The notes beneath the pieces were generated by a model, which was given only the letters and a program-made list of their open reading frames with translations, did no database searches and had not been told where the DNA came from. The position numbers and the translations under genes are program-made. 64,000 nt of DNA from Gemmatimonadaceae bacterium (GTDB lineage: Bacteria > Gemmatimonadota > Gemmatimonadetes > Gemmatimonadales > Gemmatimonadaceae): assembly GCA_035626995.1 (NCBI GenBank), contig DASPMP010000019.1, positions 9,080 to 73,079 on the forward strand, read 5' to 3'. Positions 44,238 through 63,575 of this stretch are shown here, in pieces. Within the stretch, counting starts at the first letter, position 1. Each line of letters opens with the position of its first letter.

Positions 44238-46226
44238 ATGAACATCGACGAGCTCACGATCAACACCATACGCACGCTCTCCATGGACGGCGTGCAGAAA
44301 GCGGAGTCCGGGCATCCCGGCACGCCCATGGCGCTCGCCCCGCTCGCGTACAAGCTCTACATGCAGCACATGAAGCACGATCCCTCGGATCCCGCCTGGT
44401 TCGATCGCGACCGGTTCGTGCTCTCCGCGGGTCACGCGTCGATGCTCCAGTACAGCGTGCTCTTCCTCGCGGGCTACGATGTCACCCTTGACGACCTCAA
44501 GAGCTTTCGGCAATGGGAGAGCCGCACCCCGGGACACCCGGAGTACGGCTATACCGCCGGCGTGGAGACCACGACCGGTCCTCTTGGCCAAGGGATGGCC
44601 AATGCCGTCGGATTTGCGATGGCCGAGGCGCATCTGGCAGCAGTCTTCAACAAGCCCGGTCACGCAATCGTCGACCATTACACGTGGTTCATCGCCAGCG
44701 ATGGCGACCTCATGGAGGGCGTCTCGCATGAGGCTGCATCGTTCGCTGGCCACAATGGGCTCGGCAAGCTCATCGGCTTCTACGACGACAACAAGATCAC
44801 CATCGACGGGTCCACTGAGCTGTCATACAGCGACGATGCACGTAAGCGCTTCGAAGGGTATGGCTGGCAGGTGTTGTCACTGGACGACGTGAATGACCTC
44901 GCCGCCATCGATCGCGTCATCGAGCAGGCAAAGCGCGACGCAGATCGGCCCACCCTCGTGATCACAAAGACGCACATCGGCTACGGCAGCCCGAAAAAGC
45001 AGGACACGGCCTCGGCGCATGGCGAGCCCCTCGGCAAGGACGAGGTCGTCGCGACCAAGAAGAACCTCGGCTGGCAGTGGCCCGAGGAGTCGTTCATGGT
45101 CCCGCAGGAAGTGCTCGACCACACCCGCACCGCCGTGAAGCGCGGAAAGGCGGCGCACGCAGAATGGAGGCAGCGGCTCGCGGCGTATCCGGAGCGCGAA
45201 GAATTGCAGCGCCGGATCGATGGTCGCCTTCCGGATGGCTGGCAGTCAAAGATCCCATCGTTCACGAAGGAGAATGGCGGCGTCGCCAGCAGGGCAGCCT
45301 CGAACGTCGTCCTCAACGCAGTCGCTGCAGTCATGCCCGAGCTCTTCGGCGGTTCCGCCGACCTGACACCATCGAATGGCACGGCGCTGAAGGCACAGCC
45401 GGTCTTCTCGCGGGACAACAAGGCCGGACGGTACGTGCACTTCGGCATCCGGGAGCACGGGATGGCCGCGATCATGAACGGCCTGTCGCTGCATGGTGGT
45501 ATCCGCCCGTTCGGGGGCACCTTCCTGATCTTCAGCGACTACATGCGCCCGTCACTGCGTCTCGCGGCGATCATGGGGCAGCCGGTGATCTTCGTGTTTA
45601 CTCATGATTCCATCGGACTCGGCGAGGACGGCCCTACGCACCAGCCGATCGAGCAGCTCTCGACGCTTCGCGCCATCCCGAATCTCACCCTCATCCGTCC
45701 CGCGGACGCGAATGAAGCGGCAGAGGCATGGCGCGTCGCCATCGCGCACCAGGACGGCCCGACAGCGCTCGTGTTCACCCGGCAGAAGCTCGGCTTCATC
45801 GATCGCGAGAAGTACGCGCCCGCAGCGGGCGTCGTCCTCGGCGCGTACATCCTTGCGGATGTCAACGCGCAGTCTCCGAGCCCGCAGGTCGTTCTGATGT
45901 CCAGCGGGTCCGAGGTCGCGCTCATCCTCGCCGCGCACGAGAAGCTGGCTGCCGCCGGCATCCGTTCGCGCGTGGTTTCCATGCCGAGTCACGAGTTGTT
46001 TGCACGGCAGACCGAGGAGTACAGGGAGTCTGTACTGCCGGCAGGCGTGCCACGCGTTGCCATCGAGGCGGGCCACCCGATGTCCTGGTATCGCTGGGTC
46101 GGCGAGAATGGCACCATCCTGGGCGTTGATCGCTTCGGCGCGAGCGCGCCATACGAGCGGATCTATCAGGAGCTCGGCCTCACTGTGGACGAAGTCGTCA
46201 CGGCTGCGCGGCGCCTCATCGCATAG
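44238..46226 (+). CDS. tkt: Transketolase (single-chain, canonical)
   Basis: 662 aa. [36 protein letters not shown], ThDP motif [34 protein letters not shown]. Confidence 0.93.
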
Positions 46227-47835: not shown

Positions 47836-47874
47836 CATTTATCGTCTAGGGTCTTCGACCGGCATCCAATCGGC

Positions 47875-48062
47875 GAAAGCGCTCAATTGGGTCTCGGATT
47901 CGGCTGAAACGCCGGATGAGGCTGATGACTGCGCTGCAGGTTGGCAAAGACCAATGCACAATTCCGAGAACAATGGGCATCAATGGAGTGGCATTGTTCA
48001 AGGAACAAATCCGGCTCTGATCCGCTGTTTCAGCCTAATCCGAGACCCCTTTGAGCGCTTTC
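47875..48062. repeat. 188-bp element bounded by 36-bp imperfect terminal inverted repeats (candidate MITE or structured RNA)
   Basis: The left arm GAAAGCGCTCAATTGGGTCTCGGATTCGGCTGAAAC (47875-47910) matches the reverse complement of 48027-48062 (GAAAGCGCTCAAAGGGGTCTCGGATTAGGCTGAAAC) at 33/36 positions. Nested stems: GCCGGAT/ATCCGGC (47911-17 / 48009-15) and GAACAATG/CATTGTTC (47968-75 / 47992-99). The interior is visibly less GC-rich than its surroundings. Confidence 0.7.
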
Positions 48063-48130
48063 ATTGAGATAGCACCAGTCGACGACGCCGAAGTAGCGGA
48101 CGACGCGCGTCGAGTCGACGAGCGGCTCCA

Positions 48131-49462
48131 ATGAGCGCTCACAGGCTTCTCAATACCGATCCAGCCGTTCGTCAGGCCTACAGCGCGGACGTCTCGGGGC
48201 TGGTCATGATTCCCGATGCGGTGGCCCGCCCCAGGACCGCCGCCCAAGTGCTGGAAGTCTTGACTTCCGCTGCAGCGAACGACACGCCGGTGACGCCTGC
48301 GGGCAGCCAGACCAGCACGACAGGCGCGTCGATTGCCGATCGCGGCATCCTGCTCTCCATGCGTGCGATGGATCGCGTCATCGACATTGATGTCGCTACA
48401 CGTCGCGCGATCGTCGAGCCCGGAGTCCTGCTGGGAGACCTGAATCGCGTCGCCGCCGAGCACGGATTGCTCTTTGCTCCGGATCCGACGAGCCTCGATG
48501 ACGTGACGGTAGGCGGAGCAGTCGCGTGCAACGCGTCCGGAGCGAGATCGCTGCTGTACGGGCCGACGCGACCACATGTACAGGCGCTCGACGTTGCACT
48601 GATGTCGGGCGCCCTGCTTCAGGTTCGACGCTCCGGCCTCGACAAGAACACGGCAGGTTATGCGTTCGCGCAGGAACCGGTGGACTGGTTCGTCGGGAGC
48701 GAAGGCTCGCTTGGAGTCATCACGCGCGCGGAGCTGTCGCTCGTACCACTTCCGCCCTCTGTCGTGGGGCTGGCATTTCCCTGTGCCGACGAAGCAACGG
48801 CGCTCTCGCTGGTGATCGCCATCCGGGAATCGCCGCTGCGTCCGCGGTGCATCGAGTACTTCGACCCGGTCGCACTGGATGTCGCGCTCCAGCGCTCGGG
48901 TGCCCTCGTCTATGTCGAGGACGCGACCGGGATGCCACTCGACGCATGGCTCGAGCTCGCGGAGCGTTTCGGCGCAGCGCAGGACATCGAGGTGTTCGAG
49001 GGAGACGCCGCGCTTCGCGAAGCGCGCAGGTTCCGCCATGCGGTGCCAGCGACGATGAATGAGCGTGGCGCCGCACGTCGCAGTGCCGGAGGCCGGAAGG
49101 TGTCCACAGACTGGGCGGTTCCATATCGCCGGCTTCCGGAAGCCATCGCGCATGCGCGGCGCCTGGTCGACGCCGCTGGCCTGGATCAACCTGCCATCTA
49201 TGGCCATGCGGGCAACGGTCACCCGCATGAAAATTTCATCGCCGCCGACGCGGACGAGCTGCATCGTGTCGAACAGGTCGTCGAGGAAACGTTGCGCTAC
49301 GTGCTCTCCATCGGAGGCACCGTGTCGGCCGAGCATGGGATCGGGAAAATCAAGCGGAGGTGGCTGCCCTTGCAGGCGAGCCTCACGCAGCTCGGGGTCA
49401 TGCGCGCGGTGAAGCGCGAGCTCGATCCGCGCGACCTTCTTGCGCCGGGGAACATCCTGTGA
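48131..49462 (+). CDS. FAD-linked oxidase/dehydrogenase of the GlcD family (possible D-2-hydroxyacid dehydrogenase)
   Basis: 443 aa. PCMH-type FAD domain (..PVTPAGSQTSTTGASI.., LLFAPDPTS...VGGAVACNASG, GSEGSLGVITRAELSLVPLP). C-terminal ..SAEHGIGKIKR. Confidence 0.85.
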   Translation: MSAHRLLNTDPAVRQAYSADVSGLVMIPDAVARPRTAAQVLEVLTSAAANDTPVTPAGSQTSTTGASIADRGILLSMRAMDRVIDIDVATRRAIVEPGVLLGDLNRVAAEHGLLFAPDPTSLDDVTVGGAVACNASGARSLLYGPTRPHVQALDVALMSGALLQVRRSGLDKNTAGYAFAQEPVDWFVGSEGSLGVITRAELSLVPLPPSVVGLAFPCADEATALSLVIAIRESPLRPRCIEYFDPVALDVALQRSGALVYVEDATGMPLDAWLELAERFGAAQDIEVFEGDAALREARRFRHAVPATMNERGAARRSAGGRKVSTDWAVPYRRLPEAIAHARRLVDAAGLDQPAIYGHAGNGHPHENFIAADADELHRVEQVVEETLRYVLSIGGTVSAEHGIGKIKRRWLPLQASLTQLGVMRAVKRELDPRDLLAPGNIL

Positions 49463-50103
49463 AGTTCGCCTCCGTTGTTCTCGACGTGGATTCAACGCTC
49501 TGCGGCGTGGAAGGCATCGACTGGCTCGCGCAACAGCGCGGTGGCGACATTGCCGAACGCACGCGCGCGCTGACGGACCGTGCGATGGATGGCGAGATCA
49601 CTCTCGACGCCGTCTATGGCGAGCGGCTCGCGCTCATCAGGCCCAACCGCGATGACATCGAAGCGCTCGCACGCATCTATCGCCAGACGATTGCCCCAGG
49701 CGCTGCCGATGCCATCCGTCAACTCATCGGGCAGCGAACGCAGGTCGTGCTCGTCAGCGGAGGGATCCGCCAGGCCATCGCACCGTTAGCGCGCGAGCTC
49801 GGTGTGCCCGTCCAAGCCGTCGATCTCCACTTCGACCCGTCGGGAGCTTTCGCGGGTTTCGACCACGCCTCCCTGCTCGCGACGCAGATGGGAAAGCGTG
49901 AAGTCGTTCGCTCCCTGTCACTTCCGCGCCCCATACTCGCGGTGGGCGACGGGTCCACCGACGTGGCAATGAAGGACGCCGTTGACCGGTTTGTGGCATT
50001 CACGGGTTTTCACAAGCGAGCACAGGTCGTGCAACAGGCGGCGGGTGAGGTGGCCACATTCGGGGAGCTCCTGCAACTCGTACGCGGCGACCGCGCTCGC
50101 TGA
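49459..50103 (+). CDS. HAD-IB hydrolase, phosphoserine phosphatase (SerB)-like
   Basis: The GTG at 49459 overlaps the upstream stop (GTGA). HAD motif I VLDVDSTLC; motif II LVSGG; motif IV AVGDGSTDVAM. Confidence 0.75.
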   Translation: MKFASVVLDVDSTLCGVEGIDWLAQQRGGDIAERTRALTDRAMDGEITLDAVYGERLALIRPNRDDIEALARIYRQTIAPGAADAIRQLIGQRTQVVLVSGGIRQAIAPLARELGVPVQAVDLHFDPSGAFAGFDHASLLATQMGKREVVRSLSLPRPILAVGDGSTDVAMKDAVDRFVAFTGFHKRAQVVQQAAGEVATFGELLQLVRGDRAR

Positions 50104-50131
50104 TTTTCACAGGTCTCGCGGGAAGGTCATC

Positions 50132-51253
50132 ATGAAGCTTCGTGCGCCGCTGCTCGTTGCCGCCCTCCTGGGCTGCAGCGATCCCAATCCGCCGCTGCCG
50201 TCTGCGCTTCGTGTCACCCCGTTCGTCAACGGCCTCTCCGCGCCCATTTTCCTCGCGTCGCCGCCAGGGGACGCACGGGTTTTCATCGCCGAGCAGGGTG
50301 GCCGCATCCGGGTCGTTGTCGACGGCGCCCTTGTGGAAGAGCCATTCCTCGACATCAGCTCGAAGATCAGCGCGGGGGGTGAGCGCGGACTCCTCGGCTT
50401 CGCGTTCCACCCCGACTTTGCCACGAACGGATTTTTCTACGTCAACTACACGGACCTCAACGGCGATACGAAGATCGAGCGATATCACGCCCAGCCATCC
50501 GCGTTGACTGCGGACGCGGCGTCGGCATCACATGTCCTCGGAATTCCTCAGCCGTTCTCGAATCACAATGGCGGGATGCTCCTCTTCGGTCCTGATGGCA
50601 ACCTGTGGATTGGCACTGGCGATGGTGGCAGCGGTGGCGACCCGCAGGGAAACGGACAGCGGACGACCACGCTGCTCGGAAAGATGCTCCGTATCAGCGT
50701 CGGCGCGGCCGACGGATATGCGATTCCCCTCGATAATCCCTTCGCGACGAGTACCGCGGTGCGCACGGAGATCTGGGGACTGGGACTCCGGAATCCCTGG
50801 CGTTACTCCATCGATCGCGGCACGGGCTTGCTCTACGTGGCCGACGTCGGACAGAACGCGTGGGAGGAAATTCACGTCGTCCGCACGAATGCGTCTCCCG
50901 TGAATTTCGGATGGGTCATCATGGAAGGCACCCGGTGCTACAACGCCGAGAGCTGTGACATGAACGGCCTCGATATTCCCGTCCTCGAATATCCACACGC
51001 CGAGGGTTGCTCCATCACCGGTGGGTTCGTCTATCGCGGGAGCTTCATTCCCGGAATCCGAGGACACTATTTCTACAGCGATTTCTGCACTGGGTTTCTG
51101 CGCAGCTTCCGCTACGCGGACGGCCGGGCGACGCAGCAGCGGGAATGGGACGTCGGTGACCTCGGCAACGTCATGTCCTTCGGCGAGGATTCCGCCGGAG
51201 AGCTGTACATCCTGTCGTCGAACGGCACGGTATACAGGATCGTTCCTCCGTAA
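50132..51253 (+). CDS. PQQ-dependent sugar dehydrogenase (soluble glucose/sorbosone dehydrogenase, GSDH family) lipoprotein
   Basis: Lipobox LLGC. GERGLLGFAFHPDF..FFYVNYT, SNHNGGMLLFGPDGNLWIGTGDGG, GLRNPWRYS. Confidence 0.85.
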   Translation: MKLRAPLLVAALLGCSDPNPPLPSALRVTPFVNGLSAPIFLASPPGDARVFIAEQGGRIRVVVDGALVEEPFLDISSKISAGGERGLLGFAFHPDFATNGFFYVNYTDLNGDTKIERYHAQPSALTADAASASHVLGIPQPFSNHNGGMLLFGPDGNLWIGTGDGGSGGDPQGNGQRTTTLLGKMLRISVGAADGYAIPLDNPFATSTAVRTEIWGLGLRNPWRYSIDRGTGLLYVADVGQNAWEEIHVVRTNASPVNFGWVIMEGTRCYNAESCDMNGLDIPVLEYPHAEGCSITGGFVYRGSFIPGIRGHYFYSDFCTGFLRSFRYADGRATQQREWDVGDLGNVMSFGEDSAGELYILSSNGTVYRIVPP

Positions 51254-51304: not shown

Positions 51305-52855
51305 ATGAACGAACGCGCTGGCGTCGCGGTGTCGATGTCCCGCCGGGAGCTCGCATATCTCGTAATGGCACTTGCCGGGGGCACGATCGCGCTCCTGTCC
51401 GTCAGCGGTGTGCTGTGGACGCGTCCGTTGTGGATGGATGAACTGGCGACGGCCTGGGTAACCGCGCATGCGTCCCCGGTCGATGTTGTGCGCCACATCG
51501 CGCGAGGGGGCGAATGGTCGCCGCCGGCATATCATCTTCTCGTCTGGATCGTACGCCAATTGAGTGGTGGCGGACTCGATCCCATCGTACTGCGGTCCGT
51601 GTCAGCGTTGCTCGCAACCGTCGCCATCGCGCTGGTGTATGCGACGCTTCGCCGACGCGTCGAGATCGCGACTGCTGCGGCCGCAACGCTCGTGATGGTG
51701 GGACATTCGCTGTTCATCGAGCAGGCTTTCGAGGGCCGCATGTACGCGGGTTGGCTCGCGGCGGCCGCCTTCTACGCATGGTCCCTGGGGCAACCGCAGC
51801 ACACGCGTGGAGCACGCGTACGACAGGGGCTCGCGGCCGTGTTGCTCGTCGCCGTACACTGGTTCGGCATCCTCTCACTTGGCCTGATGGCGGTCGGAGC
51901 GTTGTTGGCGCGGACTGGTGCGCTGCGGGACCGCATTCGGCTCGTCGTTCCCAGCGCTGCCGGAATCATCGCGCTGATCGCCCTGTCGCCGCTCGTGCTG
52001 GCACAACGGCGCGCTGCGTCAGGCATCCTTTGGGTGCCCGAGATCACCCTCGACCAGACGACCGTCCTGCTGCGCTTCTTCCTCCCGGCAGCAGCGATGG
52101 TAATCGTGGCGATTGCGGCCGTCGCATCTGTTCCATGGCGCGAATCGGCGTCGGCTGAAGCGAACCCTGATCCGCTCAACCCCGGTATCGCCGCGCTTAC
52201 CTCGCTCGTTCTGATGCCGCTGGTGTTGATTCTGGTGTCGCTGTTGCTGCAGCCGTCGATGCTGCCGCGTTATGCAGTCGTTACGGTGTTGGGATGGCCG
52301 GCGATTTTCGCGCTCGCCATTCATCTGCTGGATGTGCGTTTCCGGGTCGCGCTCGTGACGGTTTTTTCGTTCGTCGCTGCCCTGTCTTTCGCCGATGCAA
52401 CGGATGTGCGTCAGGTCTTCGCCCGCCGTGCTGCCGCGTTGCAGTCCGCGGTCCGTGAAGCGGGCGGCACACGTTTGCCCGTTGTGCTCCAGGCAATTCA
52501 CCCGATGTACTACGCCGCGCTTCCGACACCGGGCGCGCCACCACCAGCTCGGTACATCTCCGTCCCCGATTCCGCGATAGCCGGCATGTACGATGGACCC
52601 TACGCCCCCTACGTCCGCCGACACCTGCATCTGGAGCGCGAGATTGCCGCGGAGCATGAACGGCTGTTCGGCTTTCCTCCCTCGGTTGCGCTTGCGACCC
52701 TGGACACCACGCCCGCCTTCGCGCTCGTCGCCGACGCAGGGAGTCTTCCGCCGCAGTACGGAAGCGTGCAGCAATGGGCCAGGCGTCTGCTGCCGAATCA
52801 TTCCGTGCGACGCGTGAGCCCCCTGGTGTCCATTCTCGAGCGTCAGGCGCGTTGA
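51305..52855 (+). CDS. GT-C fold membrane glycosyltransferase (PMT/ArnT/GT39-GT83-like), paralog 1
   Basis: 516 aa and polytopic. First-loop acidic motif RPLWMDELATAW. C-terminal soluble domain of about 150 aa. Confidence 0.7.
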   Translation: MNERAGVAVSMSRRELAYLVMALAGGTIALLSVSGVLWTRPLWMDELATAWVTAHASPVDVVRHIARGGEWSPPAYHLLVWIVRQLSGGGLDPIVLRSVSALLATVAIALVYATLRRRVEIATAAAATLVMVGHSLFIEQAFEGRMYAGWLAAAAFYAWSLGQPQHTRGARVRQGLAAVLLVAVHWFGILSLGLMAVGALLARTGALRDRIRLVVPSAAGIIALIALSPLVLAQRRAASGILWVPEITLDQTTVLLRFFLPAAAMVIVAIAAVASVPWRESASAEANPDPLNPGIAALTSLVLMPLVLILVSLLLQPSMLPRYAVVTVLGWPAIFALAIHLLDVRFRVALVTVFSFVAALSFADATDVRQVFARRAAALQSAVREAGGTRLPVVLQAIHPMYYAALPTPGAPPPARYISVPDSAIAGMYDGPYAPYVRRHLHLEREIAAEHERLFGFPPSVALATLDTTPAFALVADAGSLPPQYGSVQQWARRLLPNHSVRRVSPLVSILERQAR

Positions 52856-54435
52856 GCACGCAACTGTCGTCCCGGCGTGACACGCTGATCGTTGCTGGTG
52901 TCATGCTCGCGCTGCTGGGCTGCGCGGTGAGCGTGTGGAACATCCTGCTCACTCGGCCGCTCTGGCTCGATGAAGTCCACACGCTGATCGTGGCAGAGCG
53001 CCCCACCGCGGCGCTGGTCCTGTCCGACCTTACCGGTGGCGTCGATACTGCGCCAGGCCTGATGCACCTCCTCATGTGGTCAATCGGCAGGGTGGTATCG
53101 CTCTCGCCCGTCGTGCTGCATCTCGTCCCCCTCGTCGCCGTGTGGCTGGGGCATGTGTTCCTGTTCGCGGCGTTGCGCCGGCGTTTTGGCGTCATCGCTT
53201 CCAGCGCGGGAACGCTCGCGGTGCTGACGACCCTCCTGGTCGTCCAGATGACGTATGAGGCACGGTTCTACGGGCTGTGGCTCATGTTCGCGGCAGGATT
53301 CGCATGCGCAATCGGTCGGGAGCCATCGCGCGGACGCGATCTGCTGGTCGGTGTATTCGCGATCCTGCTCTGCACCATTCACTGGTTTGGCGTCATCTCC
53401 CTGGGGATCATGTGCGTCGCAGTGATGACGGTGCACTGGCGGACATGGCGTGTCGGCCTCCGCGCAATCGTCCCTGCCGCCGCAGGCATCATTGCCCTGC
53501 TTTTCACCATTCCGGTGCTGCTCGGTCAACGCGCCGCCGTGACGGCGCCGACCTGGATCCCCGCCCCGAATTCAGGACAGATATGGGAGATGACGCGAAC
53601 GTTTTACGTCGCGCTCGTTCCCGTGCTCGCCGTTTTGATTCTGCTCGCTCAGCGACTCCGGCCGAGAGCTGACAGCCGAGACCTGACAGCCGAGGGCCGA
53701 GAGCTGACAGCCGAGAGCCGGGAGCCGAGGCCGGACGGCCGAGAGCCGAGGGCGCTATGGAACCGCAGCATCGTGGCACTCGCGTCGCTCGCCTTGATGC
53801 CCGTCGCGATGTACATGGTGTCCGTCGTGCTGCAGCCCAGCCTCCTCGACCGGTATTCAACGGTTGCATTGCTGGCATGGGCGCCCCTCGTCGCCTGCGC
53901 GACTCAAGCGCTTCCCGCGCGCGCCGGTGTGCTGTTCTCGCTCCTTTTGCTCAGCCTCGGCGCACTCAACTACCGTCGCGCTGCCGGCGGCATGCAGAGT
54001 TACCAGCGGGTGTTCGACGCCGATTTGCGCTCGTGGAACGCTGCCGTCTCCCGCACCGACCTTCCGATCGTTTTCCAGGCGCGGCATGTCCAGCTTCCCA
54101 TCGCTGCCGTAAAACCGTCAGGGCGCGAACGGATGGCATTTCTGGTGCTGCCGGACTCCACTCTCAACGCCGCCTTCAACGTGCGTGGCCCGCTGCGGCT
54201 GATGAACGCATTCTTCCGGTTCGAGCGCGAGGCCGCGCTGCTACACCATCGCGTCTATCGCTTTCCACCGGTGCGAACCCAGGCCGAGCTGGATACCACG
54301 TCCCAATTCCTGCTGCTGGCTTCAGACGCGAGCCTGCCCCCGGGCTACAAGAACGTCGAGCGATTCGCGCAGGTCTTTTTCCCGACACACACGGTGACGC
54401 GACTCGAAAGGAATCTGGCGCTGCTGAGACGGTGA
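52852..54435 (+). CDS. GT-C fold membrane glycosyltransferase, paralog 2 (carries an in-frame repeat insertion)
   Basis: The TTG at 52852 overlaps the upstream stop. RPLWLDEVHTLI. Colinear with paralog 1 along its whole length, including the C-terminal ..ASLPPGY.. region. Confidence 0.7.
   Translation: MSTQLSSRRDTLIVAGVMLALLGCAVSVWNILLTRPLWLDEVHTLIVAERPTAALVLSDLTGGVDTAPGLMHLLMWSIGRVVSLSPVVLHLVPLVAVWLGHVFLFAALRRRFGVIASSAGTLAVLTTLLVVQMTYEARFYGLWLMFAAGFACAIGREPSRGRDLLVGVFAILLCTIHWFGVISLGIMCVAVMTVHWRTWRVGLRAIVPAAAGIIALLFTIPVLLGQRAAVTAPTWIPAPNSGQIWEMTRTFYVALVPVLAVLILLAQRLRPRADSRDLTAEGRELTAESREPRPDGREPRALWNRSIVALASLALMPVAMYMVSVVLQPSLLDRYSTVALLAWAPLVACATQALPARAGVLFSLLLLSLGALNYRRAAGGMQSYQRVFDADLRSWNAAVSRTDLPIVFQARHVQLPIAAVKPSGRERMAFLVLPDSTLNAAFNVRGPLRLMNAFFRFEREAALLHHRVYRFPPVRTQAELDTTSQFLLLASDASLPPGYKNVERFAQVFFPTHTVTRLERNLALLRR
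53661..53751. repeat. GCCGAGAGCTGACA / GCCGAGR repeat array inside the coding sequence of GT-C paralog 2
   Basis: gccgagagctgaca gccgagacctgaca gccgagg gccgagagctgaca gccgaga gccggga gccgagg ccggacg gccgaga gccgagg. Translated as ..RADSRDLTAEGRELTAESREPRPDGREPRA.. Confidence 0.9.
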
Positions 54436-54536: not shown

Positions 54537-55466
54537 CTACTTCAAATTCAGCGACTCCTCGATGACATAGATCGGCCGTCGCTTCGCCTCGCTGAACGTC
54601 CGCCCGATGTATTCCCCGAGGATGCCGATGCCGAGGCTGTTCACGCCGAGCCCGGCGAGCACCAGCACGATCAGCGTCGTGAGACCTGGCGGTGGTGAGC
54701 CGCGCAACCAAAGCGTCACGTACACGATCGCGAGCAGGAACGACACGCCGAGCACCATGAACCCGAAAAGGGTGAACAGGCGCAGTGGCCGTAGGGAAAA
54801 GCTCGTGATCGCGTTGAACGTGAACAGCAGGATGTCCGCGAGCGGCGCGTTGCTGCGTCCGGTCGTACGGGGACGCCGCTCGTACTCCACGCCGATCTGC
54901 TTGAACCCGACCCAGGCGATCATCCCGCGCATGTAGCGGTTCACTTCACCCATTCGCAGCACGGCGTCGCGGACCCGTGAGCTGATGAGCCGGAAATCGC
55001 CGGTGTCCTTCGGGATCGGGACGTCAGAGAGCCACGCGATCATCCGATACGCGAGCCACGCGCCCGCGTTGCGCCACTTCGGGTCTCCGGCGCGCACGGT
55101 GCGCACGCCGTAGACCACGTCATACCCCTGCTTCCATTTCTCGATGAACCGCGGAATGACTTCAGGGGGATCCTGCAGATCCGAATACAGCACAACCATC
55201 GCGTCACCATTCGCGTGCTCATAGCCGGCGGTGATCGAGCCTTCGACCGAGAAATTCCGGCTGAACCGGATGTATCTCCATCGCTTGTCTCGCTGACAGA
55301 GCTCGGCGGCGAGCCGGCCGGTGTCGTCGGTGCTCGCATTGTCGACGATGATGAACTCGAAGTCGTCCGGCTGGGACGCCGCCAGCGCCGTCACCTCGGC
55401 CTCGACGCGCGCCATGTTCCCCGCCTCGTTCCGGGCAGGGATGATGATCGTAATGAGCTTTTTCAC
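54537..55466 (-). CDS. GT2 polyprenyl-phosphate glycosyltransferase (GtrB/ArnC/Dpm1-like) with two C-terminal TM helices
   Basis: IIIPARNEAGN.., FIIVDNASTDDT, VLYSDLQDPPEVIPRF.., C-terminal FMVLGVSFLLAIVYV and LIVLVLAGLGVNSLGIGILGEYIGR. Confidence 0.85.
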   Translation of the reverse strand: MKKLITIIIPARNEAGNMARVEAEVTALAASQPDDFEFIIVDNASTDDTGRLAAELCQRDKRWRYIRFSRNFSVEGSITAGYEHANGDAMVVLYSDLQDPPEVIPRFIEKWKQGYDVVYGVRTVRAGDPKWRNAGAWLAYRMIAWLSDVPIPKDTGDFRLISSRVRDAVLRMGEVNRYMRGMIAWVGFKQIGVEYERRPRTTGRSNAPLADILLFTFNAITSFSLRPLRLFTLFGFMVLGVSFLLAIVYVTLWLRGSPPPGLTTLIVLVLAGLGVNSLGIGILGEYIGRTFSEAKRRPIYVIEESLNLK

Positions 55467-55634
55467 GTCTCGGTCAGCGGTGGGCGCATTGCCTCAGATA
55501 ACGATTAGCCGATGCAGAACGAAACGCTTGCGTCCCTGTTGTCATGCGGGCGGGGGAGCCCGCCTGCCCTCTGGGACGCCCGGCCCTCTGAATCGTCCTA
55601 TGGGGGCTGGATTCACTGTAGGCCCAAGCACTTA

Positions 55635-55720
55635 GCGCCGAGGCCGAGGCGGAGCGCCGAGGCCGAAACCGTTAGCTGTCAGCCGAGAGCCGAGAGCTGA
55701 AGGCCGAGAGCCGAGAACCG
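55635..55720. repeat. GCCGAGR heptad array directly upstream of the rfbF start codon
   Basis: gcgccgag gccgagg cggagc gccgagg ccgaaac cgttagctgtca gccgaga gccgaga gctgaag gccgaga gccgaga accgataaaATG. Confidence 0.9.
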
Positions 55721-55725
55721 ATAAA

Positions 55726-56502
55726 ATGAAAGTCGTCATTCTGTGCGGTGGCCAGGGCACACGACTGCGCGAGGAAACCGAGTTCCGGCCGAAGCCACTC
55801 GTCGACGTCGGCGGACGCCCTGTGCTCTGGCACATCATGAAGTTCTACGCACACTTCGGGTTCAAGGAATTCATCCTCTGCCTCGGCTACCGGGGCGCGA
55901 TGATCAAGGAGTACTTCCTGAACTACGAGGCGATGAACAGTGATTTCACCATCAGCCTCGGCGAGCACCACGCGATCAAGTACCACGAGCCGCATGGCGA
56001 GCAGGATTATCGCGTCACCCTCGTGGACACCGGGCAGGATACCGCAACCGGAGGCCGCGTCGCCCGCACGCGCGGCTACGTCAAGGACGATCTCGTGATG
56101 GTGACATACGGCGACGGTCTCGTGGACGTCGACATCGCCAAGGCCATGGCCTTCCACAAGGAGCATGGCAAGCTCGCGACCGTGACCACCGTGCGTCCCA
56201 CGTCGCGCTTCGGGATTCTCGAGCTCGACGATCGCGCTGGCGTCGAGCGCTTCTCGGAGAAACCCCAGGTGGATGGCTGGGCCAGCGCCGGATATTTCAT
56301 CTTCGACCGCAAGATCTACGACTATCTTGGCGGCGACGACTGCGTTCTCGAGCGCGAGCCACTGGAGCAGCTGGCGAAGGAGAAGCAGCTGATGGCCTAT
56401 CGCCACGACGGATTTTTCTTTGCGATGGACACCTATCGTGAATACCTGCAGCTCAACGAGCTGTGGAACACCGGCACCGCCCCTTGGAAGGTCTGGAAGT
56501 GA
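55726..56502 (+). CDS. rfbF: Glucose-1-phosphate cytidylyltransferase (CDP-glucose synthase)
   Basis: [65 protein letters not shown] is nearly diagnostic of RfbF/DdhA. Confidence 0.92.
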
Positions 56503-57518
56503 AGCCGAGAGCCGAGGGCCGAGAGCCGAGGCCGAGGCTCAAAGCCGAGGCCAATTTCTGGACCGACCGCCCAACCCTCGTCACAGGCGGCACGGGCCTC
56601 GTCGGCAGCTGGCTTGTCAAGCGACTGGTGGAGCACGGCGCATCGGTCGTGTGTCTCGTGCGCGACTGGGTGCCGCAGAGTGAGCTCGTGCGCACGGGAA
56701 CGCTCGAGAAGGTCAACGTTGTTCGTGGCGACGTGCGCAGCCAGCGGGTACTGGAGCGCGCGATCGGCGAGTACGAAGTGGACACGGTCATACATCTCGC
56801 CGCGCAGACCATCGTGGGGATCGCGAACAGAAATCCGGTGTCGACCTTCGAGTCGAACATCCAGGGAACCTGGGCACTCCTCGAGGCGTGCCGGCGGAGT
56901 CCGCTGGTGAAGCAGGTGGTGATCGCATCGTCGGACAAAGCGTACGGCGACCAGGAGAACCTTCCGTACCGTGAAGACGCGCCGCTGCAGGGACGCAATC
57001 CCTACGACGTCAGCAAGAGCTGCTCTGATCTCATCGCGCAGTCGTATGCGTCGGTCTACGGGCTGCCCGTTGCAATCACGCGCTGTGGCAATTTCTACGG
57101 TGGCGGCGACCTGAACTGGAATCGCATTGTACCGGGGACCATCCGCTCGGTGCTGCGCAACCAGCGCCCGGTCATCCGCTCTGACGGCACCTACATCCGC
57201 GATTATTTCTACGTCGAGGACGGTGCGGCGGCCTACATGCTGCTCGCGGAGAAGATGTCGTCGAACCCCACGGTTCGCGGACAGGCGTACAATTTCTCGA
57301 ATGAGATCCAGATACCGGTGCGGGATCTTGCGAACCGGATCCTTCAGCGGATGGACTCGAAGCTCGAGCTCGACATCCGCAACGACGCCGTGAACGAGAT
57401 CAGGCACCAGTACCTGTCGGCGGACAAGGCGAAGCAGGAGCTCGCGTGGACGCCCCTGTTCAATCTCGACCAGGGACTCGACCGCACCATCGCGTGGTAC
57501 CGTGATTTCTTTGGCTGA
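56499..57518 (+). CDS. rfbG: CDP-glucose 4,6-dehydratase
   Basis: [25 protein letters not shown] matches the RfbG N-terminus. The SDR catalytic residues are SSDKAYG..YDVSKSC. The only in-frame start before the Rossmann motif is the GTG at 56499 (or 56463), so the heptad repeat is translated ([17 protein letters not shown]). Confidence 0.88.
56504..56552. repeat. GCCGAGR heptad array at the rfbF/rfbG junction (inside the rfbG 5' coding region)
   Basis: gccgaga gccgagg gccgaga gccgagg ccgaggctcaaa gccgagg cc. Confidence 0.9.
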
Positions 57519-57572
57519 ACAGGCACAGACGTTCATGCGAAAAGGGAACTCATTCAATCAGTCCCTTCGTCG

Positions 57573-58928
57573 GTGGAGCTTGCGTGGGGTGGAAAGGTGA
57601 CCACGCGATCCCCCCAGGAACTGCGCAAAGCGGTCCTGAAGCTCGTCGCCGAGTATCATGGGGCGGCTTTCCAGAAGGGCGAGTTCGTGCCCGGCGAGAC
57701 GCCGATCCCGGTGAGCGGGAAGGTGCTCGATGCCCGCGACTTCCAGATGATGACGGAGGCGGTGCTTGACGGCTGGCTCACCACCGGACGCTTCGCTGCC
57801 GATTTCGAGCGCAAGTTCGCGCGGTTCTTCGGCATTCGTCACGCGATGCTCGTGAATTCCGGGTCGTCGGCGAATCTCTGCGCATTCTCCACGCTGACGT
57901 CGCCGTTGCTCGAGGGCGACGAGCTGCAGGCGGGTGACGAAGTCATCACGGTCGCCGCGGGATTCCCAACGACCGTGAACCCGATCATCCAGAACCGGAT
58001 GGTCCCTGTCTTCATCGACGTCGAGCTTGCGACCTACGGCCCGGACGTCACCCAGCTCGAGCGCGCCCTCTCGAAGAAGACCCGGGCGATCATGGTCGCG
58101 CACACCCTCGGCAATCCGTTCGACCTCCGTGCGATCACCGAGTTCGCGAAAGCGCACGACTTGTGGCTCATCGAGGATTGCTGCGACGCGGTCGGCGCGA
58201 AGTACGACGGCAAATCCGTCGGCACCTTCGGGGATCTCGCGACCGTCAGCTTCTATCCCGCGCACCATATCACGATGGGTGAAGGGGGCGCGGTGCTCAC
58301 GAACACGCCGTCCATGAAGCGCATCGTCGAGTCCATCCGCGACTGGGGACGCGATTGCTGGTGCGATCCGGGGAAGGACAACACCTGCGGGAAGCGCTTT
58401 GACTGGCAGCTCGGCGATCTCCCGCACGGGTACGATCACAAGTACATCTACTCGCACATCGGCTACAACCTGAAGCTCACCGATATGCAGGCTGCCATTG
58501 GCGTCTCGCAGCTGGAGAAGCTTCCGGATTTCATCGATGCGCGCCGCCGGAATTTCGAATACCTGCACAACGCGCTGGGCGACCTGGACGACGTGCTCAT
58601 TCTGCCGCGCGCGACGCCAAACAGTGAGCCAAGCTGGTTCGGCTTTCCGTTGGCCATTCGTCCGGGCGCGGGCGTGACACGGAAGGCGATCATTCGCCAC
58701 CTCGAGAGCCGCATGATCGCGACTCGCCTGCTCTTCGGCGGCAATCTCGTGCGGCAGCCGGCGTACAGGAACGTCGAGCATCGCGTGGTTGGCACGCTCA
58801 AGAATTCGGACTTTGTCATGAACAACGTCTTCTGGATCGGCGTCTACCCTGGCCTCACCGAAGAGATGCTCGCGTTCGTGAGCCAGAGCATTCACGAGGC
58901 CGTCGCACTTGCTCACTCCGCCGCGTGA
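57573..58928 (+). CDS. rfbH: CDP-4-keto-6-deoxy-D-glucose-3-dehydrase (E1; PMP- and [2Fe-2S]-dependent)
   Basis: DegT-fold sequence with His replacing the PLP lysine ([14 protein letters not shown]). Cysteine pattern C-x57-C-x-C-x7-C (..EDCCDAV.. then [17 protein letters not shown]), counted by hand. The start is the GTG at 57573 or the GTG at 57597. Confidence 0.9.
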
Positions 58929-60028
58929 CGCACGTCTCCGAGCTCGGCGCGAATCCCCTCGATGTCGTTCGCGATGACTGCCAGTCCATCGCCGAGCGGC
59001 TGGGCGACGACGTGCAGCGGTTTGCCGGGAAGACGGTTTTGATCACCGGCGCCGCCGGGATGCTTCCGGCGTATCTCGTGGATGTGCTGGCGCATCTCAA
59101 CGACACGAAGCGCCTGGCGAAGCCTGTCGAGATCCTTGCCGTCGTCCGCTCACCGGATTCGAACGAATTCCGTCTCCGTCATCTGCGCGGCCGCAAGGAC
59201 GTGCAGTTCATTCTCGCGGACGCCGCGATGCCGTTTGAAGTGGAGGAACGGGTGCACTTCTACGTTCATGCCGCGTCGCCTGCGTCGCCTACCGCGTACC
59301 GTGCAGACCCGGTCGGGACGCTTGAGGTCAATGGGCCAGGCACTCGCCACGTGCTGGAGTTGGCGAAGCGTGACGCCGCCGAAAGCGTTTTGTATTTCAG
59401 CACGAGTGAGGTGTATGGCAGCCCCGATGCAGCCAACATCCCGACGCCTGAGACGTACGTTGGCGCCACGCAATGGCTCGGCGGCCGCGCCTGCTACGTG
59501 GAGGGAAAGCGCTTCGGCGAGGCCCTCTGCGCCGCGTCGTGGGAGCAGCATCGCACGCCCGTGAAGATCGTGCGGCCGTTCCACATCCAGGGACCGGGGC
59601 TGCGACTCAATGACGGCCGCATTGTCGCAGAGCTCATCCGGATGGGCATCGAGGGGCTCCCCTTCGAGCTCAAGTCAAACGGTATGGCGACACGGACCTA
59701 TGGCTACATCTCCGACGCCGCATTCGCATTCCTGAAGGTGCTGCTCAGCAATGAAGATGGAGAAGCATTCAACGTGGGCGCAGACAATCCCGAGACGTCG
59801 ATGAAGGAGCTGGCGTCCATCGTGTCCCGGATTTTCGGCCGCACAGAGCCGGTTCGCGTCGGTGCGGACACCCGCGCCGCGCATCTCGCTGGCGCGCCCG
59901 ATCGCGTGCGACCCGACCTGGCGAAGATCCGCGATCGGCTGGGCGTGGTCCCGATGGTGAGTCTCGAGGATGGCTTGCAGCGCACCATCCACTGGCATCG
60001 GTCCCGCCTCGCGGTGGCTGCCTCATGA
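58925..60028 (+). CDS. Extended SDR, NAD-dependent epimerase/dehydratase/ketoreductase family
   Basis: [18 protein letters not shown] (Rossmann), [15 protein letters not shown] (YxxxK). The GTG start overlaps the rfbH stop (GTGA). Confidence 0.8.
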
Positions 60029-60933
60029 ATGTCGCCAAGCTGCGGGGCGCCTACGAGCGGGGCGAGCTGCCTCGCGACGAGTTCTGGCTCAGGGCGCAGG
60101 AAGAGTACCGCCGCACGCGCGAGCATTCGTCGCTCCCGTCGAACGGCGCGGTCAAGGGCATTCGCCGCGTGGATGATGACCTGATCGTCGAGCTGCGTGA
60201 CGGCATCCGCATGCGCTGGGACATCGAGGACATGCGCACCGCGCCGAACATGCTGCTCAATCACGGCGAGTACGAGAGCCGCGAGCTGCAGGTGCTGCTG
60301 GACGCCGCGCGTCAGGCGCAGATCGTGTTCGACGTCGGCGCAAACGTCGGCTGGTATACGATCAACATCGCCCGAGCCATCGCGCGGCGTGGCGGACACC
60401 TGTACGCCTTCGAGCCCATCCCGCGGACCTTCGCGACCCTGCAGTACAATGTGCGCCTCAACGCGCTCCAGAGCTGCACCACCCTGTCGAACGTTGGGCT
60501 CGGCGACGCGGAGCAGCAGGTGGAGTTCTACCTGCCGAAGGTAACAGGGAGCGTCGCGGCCTCGCAGAAGCCCTTGTTCGAGCAGCAGGAGAACGAGAAG
60601 GTGACGGCGAAGATCGTGCGCCTCGACGAATTCATCGCGCAGAAAGGGATCAAGCGACTGGACCTGCTCAAGTGCGACATCGAGGGTGCGGAGCTGCTCA
60701 TGCTGCGCGGCGGCATGGACAGCATCGCGCGCTTTCGTCCCGTGATCTTCCTCGAGCTGCTGCGAAAGTGGAGCAAGGTGTACGGCTACCATCCCAATGA
60801 TGTGATCGCGCTGCTCGCCAAGGTGGGCTACCAGTGCTTCGCGATCGGTGATGATGAGCTCGTGCCCATCGCGAGTATCGACGACGAGACCACGAGCACG
60901 AACTTCCTGTTCACGCACGGAGACCCGCGATGA
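60025..60933 (+). CDS. FkbM family methyltransferase
   Basis: VFDVGANVGWYTINIA..HLYAFEPIPRTFATLQYNVRLN..VGLGD..LDLLKCDIEGAEL. The ATG overlaps the SDR stop (ATGA). Confidence 0.85.
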   Translation: MNVAKLRGAYERGELPRDEFWLRAQEEYRRTREHSSLPSNGAVKGIRRVDDDLIVELRDGIRMRWDIEDMRTAPNMLLNHGEYESRELQVLLDAARQAQIVFDVGANVGWYTINIARAIARRGGHLYAFEPIPRTFATLQYNVRLNALQSCTTLSNVGLGDAEQQVEFYLPKVTGSVAASQKPLFEQQENEKVTAKIVRLDEFIAQKGIKRLDLLKCDIEGAELLMLRGGMDSIARFRPVIFLELLRKWSKVYGYHPNDVIALLAKVGYQCFAIGDDELVPIASIDDETTSTNFLFTHGDPR

Positions 60934-60955
60934 ACTCTGGGTGTGGAGGACAGCC

Positions 60956-61759
60956 GTGACTGACACAGTTCACCTGGCGCGGGCAATCCGCGGACACGCC
61001 CTGCGCATGTGCTCGCACGCCGGCTCGTCGCACATCGGCACCTGCCTCAGCATGGCCGATCTCCTCGCGGTGCTGTACGCCAAGGTGTTGAAGCACGATG
61101 CGAACAATCCCACCTGGGCCGAGCGCGACTGGTTCCTGTTGAGCAAGGGGCATGGCGCAGCCGCACTGTATGCGGTGCTCGCGGAGCGCGGGTTCTTTCC
61201 GGTGACAGAACTGCATCGCTATGGAGACGAAGGTTCACCGCTGCTCGGGCATGCCAGTCATCACGTCCCGGGAGTCGAGCTCTCCACCGGCTCACTCGGC
61301 CACGCGCTGCCCGTCGGCTGCGGAATCGCGCTTGCCGCGAAGCGCGACGGCAGGAAGAATCGCGTCTTCGTGCAGCTCAGCGATGGCGAGCTGGATGAAG
61401 GCTCCAATTGGGAAGCCATCCTCTTCGCCCCGCATCACAAGCTCGACAACCTGTTCGTGCTCGTGGACTACAACAAGATCCAGAGCTTCGGCCGGGTCGA
61501 GGAAGTGCTGGGGCTCGAGCCTCTCGTGGACAAGTGGAGCGCGTTCGGGTGGGAAGTCCGCGAGATCGAAGGGCACGATCACACAGCGATCGCGCGCGCG
61601 CTGCGGAAGCCGTCGCGAGCCGGCATACCTGTCGTCGTCCTCGCGCATACGGTCAAAGGCAAAGGCGTCTCCTTCATGGAGAACGATCTCGCCTGGCATT
61701 ATCGGTCTCCGAGTACAGATCAGTTGCGCTCAGCGCTCGTTGAGCTGGGTGACGCATGA
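60956..61759 (+). CDS. Split transketolase, N-terminal (ThDP-binding) subunit
   Basis: GGAGG lies 6 nt upstream of the GTG at 60956. GSSHIGTCLSMADLLAVLY, SKGHGAAALYAVL, ThDP motif LSDGELDEGSNWEAI...VDYNKIQ. Confidence 0.85.
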   Translation: MTDTVHLARAIRGHALRMCSHAGSSHIGTCLSMADLLAVLYAKVLKHDANNPTWAERDWFLLSKGHGAAALYAVLAERGFFPVTELHRYGDEGSPLLGHASHHVPGVELSTGSLGHALPVGCGIALAAKRDGRKNRVFVQLSDGELDEGSNWEAILFAPHHKLDNLFVLVDYNKIQSFGRVEEVLGLEPLVDKWSAFGWEVREIEGHDHTAIARALRKPSRAGIPVVVLAHTVKGKGVSFMENDLAWHYRSPSTDQLRSALVELGDA

Positions 61760-61796
61760 CGGCTAGCCAGCCGCGTCGTGCAGCGCTGGTGCCGTC

Positions 61797-62714
61797 ATGA
61801 GAACCACATTCATACGGACGCTGATCGAGGTCGCCGCGGAGAACGACAATGTCTGGCTCGTGGCGGGCGATCTTGGCTATTCAGTCCTCGAGGCGTTTTC
61901 CGAGAAATACCCACAGCGCTATCTCAATGCCGGTGTCGCCGAACAGAACATGACGGGGATCGCAGCCGGTCTGGCGCTCGCCGGGAAGACGACGTTCACG
62001 TATTCGATCGCGAACTTTCCGGTATTTCGCTGCCTCGAGCAGGTGCGCAACGACGTCTGCTACCACAACCTGAACGTGAAGGTCGTCGCTGTTGGCGGGG
62101 GGCTGGCATACGGGTCTGCCGGCTACAGCCATCACGCCGTGGAGGACCTGGCGGTGATGCGTTCGCTGCCGAACATGGTCGTGTTCGCGCCAGCGGATCC
62201 TGTGGAGACGCAACTCGTGACCCGCGCCGCGGTGCAGCACCAGGGACCCTGCTACATCCGTCTTGGAAAGGCCGGCGAGCCGGTACTGCACACCGCGACC
62301 CCGGCATTCGCCATCGGCAAGGGGATCGTCGTGCGACCGGAGGGCGACGTCGCAATGATCTCGACCGGCGGGATGCTCGGCACTGTCCTGCGGGCGGCGG
62401 ACGAGCTGGGACAGCACGGGGTGAAAGCGCGCGTGATCAGCATGCCGACAGTCCAGCCCATCGATCGGGACCTCATCGAGCGCCTTGCGAGGGAGACCCG
62501 GGCGATCGTGACCGTCGAGGAGCATGGCATCGGCGGGCTGGGGAGCGCAGTCGCCGAAGTGCTGGCCGAATGCGTGGAACGCCCCCGCTTTCGTGCTATA
62601 CGCCTCGATGGCGCGCCATCAGCGCTTGCGGGTACTCAGGACGCACTGCGCGGCGCCCACGGCCTGAGCGCGCCGGGGATTGCGGCTGCTGTGCAGGCGC
62701 TCGTTGCCGGGTAA
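61797..62714 (+). CDS. Split transketolase, C-terminal (pyrimidine-binding plus C-domain) subunit
   Basis: RYLNAGVAEQNMTGIAAGLALAGK, GGLAYGSAGYSHHAVEDLAVMRSLPNM, VTVEEHGIGGLGSAV. Confidence 0.85.
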   Translation: MRTTFIRTLIEVAAENDNVWLVAGDLGYSVLEAFSEKYPQRYLNAGVAEQNMTGIAAGLALAGKTTFTYSIANFPVFRCLEQVRNDVCYHNLNVKVVAVGGGLAYGSAGYSHHAVEDLAVMRSLPNMVVFAPADPVETQLVTRAAVQHQGPCYIRLGKAGEPVLHTATPAFAIGKGIVVRPEGDVAMISTGGMLGTVLRAADELGQHGVKARVISMPTVQPIDRDLIERLARETRAIVTVEEHGIGGLGSAVAEVLAECVERPRFRAIRLDGAPSALAGTQDALRGAHGLSAPGIAAAVQALVAG

Positions 62715-62717
62715 GGC

Positions 62718-63575
62718 CTAGGCCCTCTCCGCCTTCGAGTTCACCACGGGTTCGGGAGAGCTCGACGGCCGCACGTAATCCCCGCGCGAGAAATACTTCT
62801 CGATCAAACAGTACAGGATGATGAAGAGGTACCGGCTCCCCATCTCCTTGATCACGAACTTCGATTCGCCTGTCGCGCGCCCCAGCCAGTTCGTCGGCAC
62901 TACCGTCCAGGTGTAACCCCGCACCATGGCCTTGAGCGGCAGCTCCACGGTGAGGTTGAAGTGGTTGGACAGGAAGGGACGCAGCCCTTCGACCACCTCT
63001 CGACGATAGCACTTGAAGGCATTCGTCGTGTCGTTGTAGCCCGTGCGGAACAGCAGCCGGATCGCCTGGTTCCCCATCCGGTTCAGCCACAGCTTGAGGG
63101 GTGGATAATTCCGCACTGACGCCCCCGCGGCGAAGCGCGAGCCGAAGACGCAGTCGTAGCCTTCCTCGAGCTTGCGATAGTACTGCACGATGTCGCGCGG
63201 ATCGTCGGAGGCATCCGCCATCACGATCGCGACCGCGTCCCCCTGCATCGAGTCCAGGCCGCGACGCACGGCCAGGCCGAAGCCGCCGGCGCCGCGATTC
63301 ACGACAGTTCGCAGCACCGGAACGTCCGATCGCATGGCGTTCAGCACGGCCGCGGTGTTGTCGGTGCAGTGATCCAGCACGACGAGAATCTCGTGCGGCA
63401 CCGACTCACCACGCAACGTGCCGTAGATCGCGTGGATGGTGCGCGCGATCCCCGCCTCTTCGTTGTGCGCCGGGATCAGCACCGTGAGCTTCCCCGCCCA
63501 GCGCACCGCGGTCGCGGCGTCTGGACCGGCTGCCACCGGCACCTGGGGTGGCGACGTCGTCAGGCTGTCAGCCAC
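62718..63575 (-). CDS. GT2 glycosyltransferase, Dpm1-like (polyprenyl-phosphate sugar synthase type)
   Basis: [11 protein letters not shown].., [28 protein letters not shown].., [10 protein letters not shown], with a C-terminal hydrophobic segment [10 protein letters not shown]. Confidence 0.82.

Follow-up and report, generated by a model that had tools for sequence, protein, structure and literature searches.

This study concerns a 64,000-nucleotide stretch of the genome of a Gemmatimonadaceae bacterium (GenBank assembly GCA_035626995.1, contig DASPMP010000019.1, positions 9,080 to 73,079 of the forward strand; hereafter the window), and in particular the split transketolase-like enzyme, TK-N plus TK-C, encoded at the end of a group of seven same-strand genes (55726-62714, +) that form one operon. 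The genes encode, in order, RfbF, a probable cytidine diphosphate (CDP)-glucose 4,6-dehydratase, the RfbH/E1 dehydrase, a UXS-like short-chain dehydrogenase/reductase (SDR), an FkbM methyltransferase and the two transketolase-like subunits. As judged from its residues, the pair is not a spare pentose-phosphate enzyme: its acceptor site is remodelled, and its cofactor and catalytic residues are intact. It probably serves the modification of a nucleotide sugar or glycan, not central metabolism, and our best reading, to which we would give about an even chance, is that it branches a CDP-ketosugar, at C4 of CDP-4-keto-3,6-dideoxyglucose. The genes of the operon, preceded by the housekeeping transketolase that serves as a comparison from outside the cassette, are listed here.

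44238..46226, + strand: canonical full-length transketolase (TIGR00232, 891 bits, cut-off 682)
55726..56502, + strand: RfbF, glucose-1-phosphate cytidylyltransferase (TIGR02623, 330.9 bits, cut-off 300)
56499..57518, + strand: RfbG, CDP-glucose 4,6-dehydratase-like SDR (best family TIGR02622, 216.7 bits, below its cut-off of 278)
57573..58928, + strand: RfbH/E1, CDP-4-keto-6-deoxyglucose 3-dehydrase with pyridoxamine phosphate and a [2Fe-2S] cluster (NF011936, 725 bits, cut-off 423)
58925..60028, + strand: extended SDR, UXS-like, proposed ketoreductase analogous to YerF (PF01370, E 1.3e-33)
60025..60933, + strand: FkbM-family S-adenosylmethionine methyltransferase (PF05050, E 1.8e-23; TIGR01444, 105.7 bits, cut-off 37.7)
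60956..61759, + strand: TK-N, PP-domain subunit of the split transketolase-like enzyme (PF00456, E 2.5e-41; 6YAK chain A, E 1.9e-71)
61797..62714, + strand: TK-C, subunit with the Pyr domain and the C-terminal domain (PF02779, PF02780; 6YAJ, E 4.1e-68)

A split transketolase with a remodelled acceptor site

The genes that a sequence-only reading of the window had placed lie where it put them; the reading had seen rfbH, the SDR and FkbM chained by a GTGA overlap (rfbH/SDR) and an ATGA overlap (SDR/FkbM), and had recognised the complete canonical transketolase at 44238-46226 as well as a thiamine diphosphate (ThDP) motif, LSDGELDEGSNWE...VDYN, in TK-N; all of this held, and the identities of FkbM, TK-N, TK-C, rfbH and the SDR were confirmed by family matches. 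When the pair was aligned with the split enzyme of Carboxydothermus hydrogenoformans, human transketolase and the genome's own transketolase (residue numbers are those of E. coli transketolase throughout), the segment LSDGELDEG...VDYN of TK-N fell on the ThDP/metal-binding motif of 6YAK, the human enzyme and the genome's own. Besides this motif TK-N retains the equivalents of His26, His66, His100 and His261, and TK-C those of Arg358, Glu411 and His473, so that all five catalytic or donor-side histidines (26, 66, 100, 261 and 473) align with histidines in the pair. A scan of species-representative genomes confirmed 567 relatives, the best 80 of which, 56-71% identical to TK-N and spread over about 15 phyla, were analysed; the cofactor-activating glutamate (Glu411), which is Glu49 of TK-C in GVAEQN, is invariant in 80 of these 80. 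As to the donor, 1-deoxy-D-xylulose 5-phosphate (DXP) synthases, which use pyruvate, have Phe where transketolases have His100 (PMC7661550), and the retention of His100 in TK-N argues for a hydroxylated donor.

The acceptor side of the pocket is a different matter. True transketolases, those of E. coli and yeast among them, hold the substrate phosphate with His461 and Arg520 and the C2 hydroxyl of the acceptor with Asp469. TK-C has Gly100 in place of His461, Ser-Ala108 in place of Glu468-Asp469 and Lys158 in place of Arg520, and its Ser385 region reads GDLGYSV as against ADLSKST or ADLTPSN; the phosphate-binding set of a true transketolase (Arg358, His461, Arg520, Ser385) is therefore not reproduced, Arg358 alone of the set being plainly kept, as Arg2 of TK-C. 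Position 461 is Gly in all 81 sequences (the window's and those of its 80 relatives), position 469, Ala in the window, is L, H, A, Q, M or N among its relatives (Asp in 0 of 80), and Lys stands at position 520 in the window's sequence and most of the others. Both subunits score below the NF004559 cut-off of 488 (TK-N 271 bits, TK-C 204 bits), and the pair matches only the transketolase, DXS and E1 families, the last through an E1_dh match of 21.9 bits that is just under cut-off. A single-chain YerE-like gene with the N, M and C domains of TPP_enzyme was not found at 51-64 kb of the window. The metagenome-assembled genome (MAG; 4.09 Mb, 98% complete) holds only two genes of the TK-N type, TK-N itself and the transketolase at 44238-46226, which is 32% identical to TK-N and has all the acceptor-site residues.

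Phylogeny and gene context of the pair

In the maximum-likelihood tree the window pair and its relatives form one clade (support 99/96), and the C. hydrogenoformans enzyme falls in a separate clade (99/97) together with human transketolase and a canonical split pair of the bacterial family to which the window belongs, so that the comparison with primary-metabolism transketolases sets the pair apart, in line with the second, dedicated enzyme of the sequence-only reading. Taxonomy is scrambled within the remodelled clade, a Bifidobacteriaceae MAG, for example, standing among Verrucomicrobiota, which indicates horizontal transfer. Carriers in culture include Edaphobacter sp. HDX4, Novipirellula sp. 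SH528, Roseisolibacter sp. H3M3-2 and Chthonomonas calidirosea. Relatives of the same family or order carry further divergent split pairs (L089 = G013:C95; L091/L092 = G039, G025), one of which is 40% identical to TK-C, has Gly461, has lost Asp469 and adjoins an ArnC-like family 2 glycosyltransferase (GT2), and two others of which show a third motif type, GVLSEANGPTHQ; the remodelled family is thus wider than the 80 loci studied.

TK-C adjoins TK-N in 79 of the 80 loci, and rfbF and rfbG lie within 10 kb in 41 and 42 of them, respectively. Sixty-one loci are informative, having 6 kb or more of sequence upstream; among these, E1 at 45% identity or more was found in 29, a DegT-type aminotransferase only in 19 and neither in 13, which places an E1 or DegT enzyme upstream of the pair in 48 of 61. 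Planctomycetota, Ignavibacteriota and Bacteroidota all have loci with the complete series rfbF-rfbG-rfbH-SDR-FkbM-TKN-TKC, as do two metagenome contigs whose TK-N is 73-82% identical to that of the window and which likewise have a divergent GT2 upstream. A GT2 is in the same divergent position in L083 and L085, and FkbM keeps its place in L011, L017, L021, L027, L049, L051, L064, L083 and L085. By contrast, when 20 canonical-type split transketolases of the window's phylum, all retaining His461, Asp469 and Arg520, were taken as a control, a homologue of rfbF, rfbG, rfbH, the SDR, FkbM or GT2 was found within about 9 kb of none of them (0/20), a result to be read as a contrast and not as a statistical test given that the control genomes are kin. 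Because the gene order recurs in unrelated phyla and is absent around these 20 enzymes, the association of the pair with CDP-sugar genes is more than chance.

The genes next to the pair are also not random. A second SDR adjoins it in about 20 of the 29 E1-type loci, a DegT aminotransferase being there in most others, and a methyltransferase stands directly upstream of TK-N in many (TylF-like in 15 loci, a sugar C-methyltransferase in 10, FkbM in 9); neighbour counts from clustering of open reading frames (ORFs) are lower bounds, as some genes are miscalled in loci of high GC content, and counts based on tblastn were preferred. Reduction or amination of a new side-chain ketone, followed by methylation, would account for this pattern of SDR or DegT plus methyltransferase, and the parallel that the sequence-only reading drew with DdhA-D, YerE and YerF is in this respect an apt one. 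DegT was seen directly upstream of the pair, in place of the SDR, in L010, L013, L019, L060, L065 and L067 as well as in the 19 DegT-only loci (e.g. L018, L022, L030, L036, L041, L046, L048, L058, L059), many of these DegT-upstream loci being without rfbF, rfbG or rfbH. DegT-TKN-TKC is a second conserved module, possibly for an amino-branched sugar.

At closer range the distribution is patchy. The pair was found in one of ten genus-mates, at 79% identity and with FkbM and GT2 alongside, and in genome G007 a 77%-identical copy of the GT2 at 62718-63575 adjoins that genome's TK pair. A bona fide E1 is present in 17 of 401 sampled genomes of the phylum, and none of the other 16 E1 loci of the phylum has the TK pair; these 16 mostly have rfbF and rfbG alongside (one locus, L173, has neither) and often an SDR. 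The patchy presence in the genus and the TK-less E1 loci indicate that the pair, with FkbM and the UXS-like SDR, is an add-on to the standard E1 pathway, one that by analogy parallels the addition of yerE and yerF to ddhA-D in Yersinia.

It could be argued that the pair acts as an ordinary isozyme of transketolase and provides a ketose phosphate or pentose phosphate precursor, an alternative already named in the sequence-only reading. The transketolase fold and cofactor residues are compatible with such a role, the best solved relative is a real split transketolase (PMC7661550), and Arg358 and a basic residue at position 520 remain. His461 and Asp469, however, are lost in 80 of 80 clade members, the clade lies apart from the canonical split transketolases, which are without such gene context, the presence of the pair is patchy within its genus, and the genome already has a canonical transketolase; the pathway, moreover, begins at glucose 1-phosphate and needs no special ketose. 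Precursor supply is weakened because the pair is a dedicated enzyme of a separate clade with acceptor-site loss beside a canonical transketolase, and we regard it as very unlikely. The claim that the window holds a second, dedicated ThDP enzyme tied to CDP-sugar genes is borne out, in turn, by cross-phylum synteny together with these same observations.

Proposed function

If the pair branches a CDP-ketosugar, the product of the operon would be a modified CDP-3,6-dideoxyhexose. RfbF, the 4,6-dehydratase, E1 and some electron donor would yield CDP-4-keto-3,6-dideoxy-D-glucose, as suggested by well-matched families. TK-N and TK-C would assemble into an alpha2-beta2 ThDP enzyme and load a two-carbon ketol unit, probably as dihydroxyethyl-ThDP from hydroxypyruvate or a ketose, given that the donor-side histidines, His100 included, are retained. 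This unit would be added to the C4 ketone to give a 4-C-(hydroxyacetyl) tertiary alcohol, the UXS-like SDR would reduce the new side-chain ketone as YerF does, FkbM would O-methylate one hydroxyl, and the flanking polyprenyl-phosphate-type GT2s with two membrane paralogues would deliver the sugar to a glycan at the cell surface. The changes in the pocket suit a CDP-4-keto-3,6-dideoxy substrate on what is a geometric argument only: Asp469, which binds the acceptor C2 hydroxyl, would face the deoxygenated C3 of the sugar and so be dispensable, and Arg358 and Lys520 could hold the sugar 1-phosphate, because the count of bonds from the C4 carbonyl to the C1-O-phosphate equals that from aldehyde to phosphate in erythrose 4-phosphate.

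Several points weigh against C4 branching. The function of the clade is proposed from sequence and gene context, and neither a ketone nor a nucleotide sugar is known as the acceptor of any transketolase. The SDR resembles decarboxylases of the UXS family and not any known side-chain reductase, and if it reduces C4 first, no ketone remains for the transketolase. E1 is absent from 32 of the 61 informative loci, and the clade is accordingly not specific to 3,6-dideoxy substrates. An E3 reductase, with Fer2, FAD and NAD domains in one protein, was not found in the 98%-complete MAG, so that the formation of the 4-keto-3,6-dideoxy intermediate is itself assumed. Finally, the nearest proposals, those for miharamycin and amipurimycin, remain unproven (PMC12247030).

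With respect to E1 and E3, whose joint product the sequence-only reading had taken as its premise, the E1 half stands, and for the E3 half no gene was found in this genome. RfbH aligns with the Yersinia E1 (3BCX) with an E value of 4.5e-171, and His220 and Cys193/251/253/261 are conserved in the alignment. We take the His220 that replaces the pyridoxal phosphate lysine and the four [2Fe-2S] cysteines to be the hallmarks of E1, and RfbH, which retains them, should need an electron donor. The sole FNR-type protein of the MAG (FAD_binding_6 plus NAD_binding_1; contig C294:7434-8009) has no ferredoxin domain and adjoins a sulfite-oxidase/YedY-like gene, and the five Fer2 matches are on other contigs. 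An E3-type gene was likewise not found in the 14 kb downstream of the window, nor an E3-like ORF in the 80 clade loci or the 16 TK-less E1 loci by a motif screen run without a positive control that could miss unusual E3 forms. The absence of E3 is general in these lineages and not linked to the TK pair. Four loci, including the Verrucomicrobiota-type L060, L065 (6621-7364) and L067, have between E1 and the pair a gene for a 247-amino-acid FNR-like reductase that lacks a ferredoxin domain and could be a local substitute for E3.

One might ask whether the pair itself takes the place of E3, the electrons of an oxidisable ThDP-enamine passing to the [2Fe-2S] cluster of E1. Transketolase-bound dihydroxyethyl-ThDP does reduce artificial acceptors, and an E3 of the Fer2-FNR type was not found in the genome, nor, by the same screen without a positive control, in the 80 loci. 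Neither subunit, however, has an iron-sulfur or flavin motif, more than half of the informative pair loci (32 of 61) are without E1, and we consider this role highly improbable. The 16 other E1 loci of the phylum have neither the pair nor, by that screen, a neighbouring E3-like gene; there is no complementary pattern, and the pair as a stand-in for E3 was rejected.

A less remote alternative, although still an unlikely one, is that the pair produces a two-carbon unit in activated form (glycolaldehyde or glycolyl), which ends as a substituent on the glycan or another acceptor and not as a carbon-carbon branch on the ring. Such a role may be likened to that of the transketolase-like enzymes from which certain non-ribosomal peptide lines, those for quinocarcin and naphthyridinomycin, receive glycolyl units. 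The intact donor-side residues are in keeping with it, as are the several methyltransferase families that accompany the pair and the occurrence of the clade with DegT aminotransferases and without E1, which does not tie it to one ketosugar. Family searches of the operon, on the other hand, returned no gene for a carrier protein, a lipoyl/E2 domain or an acyltransferase; the sugar would offer no amino group to acylate, since RfbH has the hallmarks of an E1 dehydrase; and the acceptor pocket is systematically remodelled, not lost.

Comparison with known systems

For C4 branching by the pair the closest functional analogue is the yersiniose A pathway of Yersinia pseudotuberculosis (DdhA-D, YerE and YerF; YerE-like enzymes are ErwE and JanthE), in which the YerE-type ThDP enzyme adds a carbon branch at the C4 ketone of CDP-4-keto-3,6-dideoxyglucose (PMC12247030). 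The two share a core of CDP-glucose, 4,6-dehydratase (a probable one in the window) and E1, followed by a ThDP enzyme and a reductase, and the yersiniose product enters a cell-surface glycan, as is proposed here. YerE, however, is a single chain of the decarboxylase (acetolactate-synthase-like) superfamily that uses pyruvate, whereas the window enzyme has two subunits, belongs to the transketolase superfamily and keeps His100, which points to a hydroxylated C2 donor; the window cassette, in addition, is without a recognisable E3 (DdhD) gene and has a methyltransferase added. To call the two enzymes non-homologous, as the sequence-only reading did, overstates the case, as their ThDP superfamilies differ but have cofactor-binding folds in common.

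The closest solved structure is that of the C. hydrogenoformans split transketolase (6YAK, 6YAJ), an active alpha2-beta2 transketolase (PMC7661550) that shares with the window pair its two-gene architecture and its cofactor-binding and catalytic residues. Unlike the window pair it keeps His461, Glu468-Asp469 and Arg520, and it sits in the separate clade.

The branching of keto sugars in miharamycin and amipurimycin biosynthesis, and in 13 Streptomyces clusters, has been ascribed to split-gene transketolases as a proposal without in vitro proof (Krug et al. 2024, as cited in PMC12247030). [quoted passage not shown] They are Streptomyces antibiotic pathways, whereas here the pair lies in a CDP-3,6-dideoxyhexose operon, apparently for a surface glycan, in a clade that reaches about 15 phyla. 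Two-subunit ThDP enzymes of the AviB1/AviB2 and KbDH types, of avilamycin and everninomicin-type sugars, place a C2 branch at C4 of a 4-keto sugar (PMC12247030; PMC10338323). They have, like the window operon, a two-subunit ThDP enzyme and a UXS-like SDR in the same pathway; they differ in belonging to the alpha-keto acid dehydrogenase 2 superfamily, in acting on UDP-pentose substrates and in serving antibiotic pathways, and the window pair is in a different superfamily.

Literature searches for this CDP-sugar cassette found no characterised example. The suggestion of a new route, made in the sequence-only reading, survives as far as the cassette goes, no paper on it having been found; the branching of keto sugars by split transketolases had already been proposed (PMC12247030).

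Operon layout and flanking genes

All junctions in the operon are overlaps or gaps of at most 54 nucleotides (nt), the non-overlapping gaps being 23 to 54 nt, and a scan of the operon for promoters and terminators gave no signal above chance. The rfbG ORF opens at 56463, and translation probably begins at 56499 with a GTG overlapping the stop codon of rfbF; its relatives have 325-329 amino acids, its TIGR02622 score is below cut-off, and its position and its orthologues in related cassettes fit a 4,6-dehydratase role. Heptamer repeats of the GCCGAG(A/G) type fill the divergent intergenic region between GT2 and rfbF (55467-55725), and the same heptamers occur at 56503-56540, in the 5' end of the rfbG ORF just past the rfbF stop. 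The start codon of TK-N is a GTG that has a GGAGG 7-11 nt upstream of it, and the ATG of TK-C is its sole possible start because of an in-frame TAG at 61764. Among solved structures the SDR at 58925-60028 comes nearest to human UDP-glucuronate decarboxylase (E 6e-46); it retains STSEVYG and YxxxK motifs, and no NCBIfam family reached its cut-off. The ketoreductase role is proposed by analogy. The operon is flanked by the following genes.

51305..52855, + strand: polytopic membrane protein, paralogue 1 (at least 8 hydrophobic segments)
52852..54435, + strand: polytopic membrane protein, paralogue 2 (at least 8 hydrophobic segments)
54537..55466, - strand: GT2 polyprenyl-phosphate glycosyltransferase, PgfS/ArnC/GtrB-like, divergent from the operon (PF00535, E 7.5e-27)
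62718..63575, - strand: GT2 glycosyltransferase, Dpm1/AglJ-like, convergent with TK-C (PF00535, E 1.4e-19; NCBIfam matches weak)

The GT2 at 54537-55466 matches PgfS (NF047588, 229 bits) and the ArnC type (NF007986, 133 bits), both below cut-off, and has two C-terminal hydrophobic segments. The tandem membrane paralogues (51305-54435) are 33% identical to each other (E 1e-71) and have a common N-terminal RPLW(M/L)DE motif; searches of Pfam and PDB gave no family match, and they may be GT-C-type transferases of an undescribed family. The glycan island extends past the end of the window (contig stretch L099, C19:72000-86000, about 640-9629 of it, in which position x is window position x + 62920), with three further extended SDRs and a bacillosamine-type module made up of a PglF-like UDP-GlcNAc 4,6-dehydratase (CoA_binding_3 domain), a Bac_transf phosphoglycosyl transferase, a PglE/PseC-like aminotransferase and a GNAT protein. 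The flanking GT2s, the membrane proteins and this module suggest delivery by a polyprenyl-phosphate carrier onto a surface glycan. Just upstream of the island, at 46000-51253 of the window, are genes for a glucose/sorbosone dehydrogenase and for three enzymes at 46-50 kb that could in principle supply hydroxypyruvate, namely a SerA-like 3-phosphoglycerate dehydrogenase (with an ACT domain), a GlcD-like FAD oxidase and a HAD hydrolase. Close relatives do not have these genes next to the cassette, and the proximity is taken as coincidence.

Implications

The branching of deoxysugars by ThDP enzymes is known from YerE-type and two-subunit dehydrogenase-type enzymes; for transketolases it has only been proposed, from two antibiotic pathways. 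What is described here is a conserved, mobile cassette in which, at 29 loci or more across many phyla, an E1 dehydrase is followed by an altered transketolase. Gly at 461, a residue other than Asp at 469 and, in most cases, Lys at 520 make up an annotation signature that separates this clade from housekeeping split transketolases. We tentatively suggest, at somewhat less than even odds, that the clade would be the first transketolase-superfamily enzyme with a nucleotide-activated ketosugar as its acceptor and a second, independently evolved route to C4-branched 3,6-dideoxyhexoses, with an undescribed product, such as a 4-C-(1,2-dihydroxyethyl)-3,6-dideoxyhexose, O-methylated in the organism studied here, in the surface glycans of hundreds of species of about 15 phyla. 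If this is true, such enzymes would offer a biocatalyst for making hydroxylated tertiary alcohols from ketones, an open goal named by the field's reviewers (PMC12247030), and transketolase-type sugar branching would be common in environmental bacteria, in whose surface glycans new monosaccharides would be predicted.

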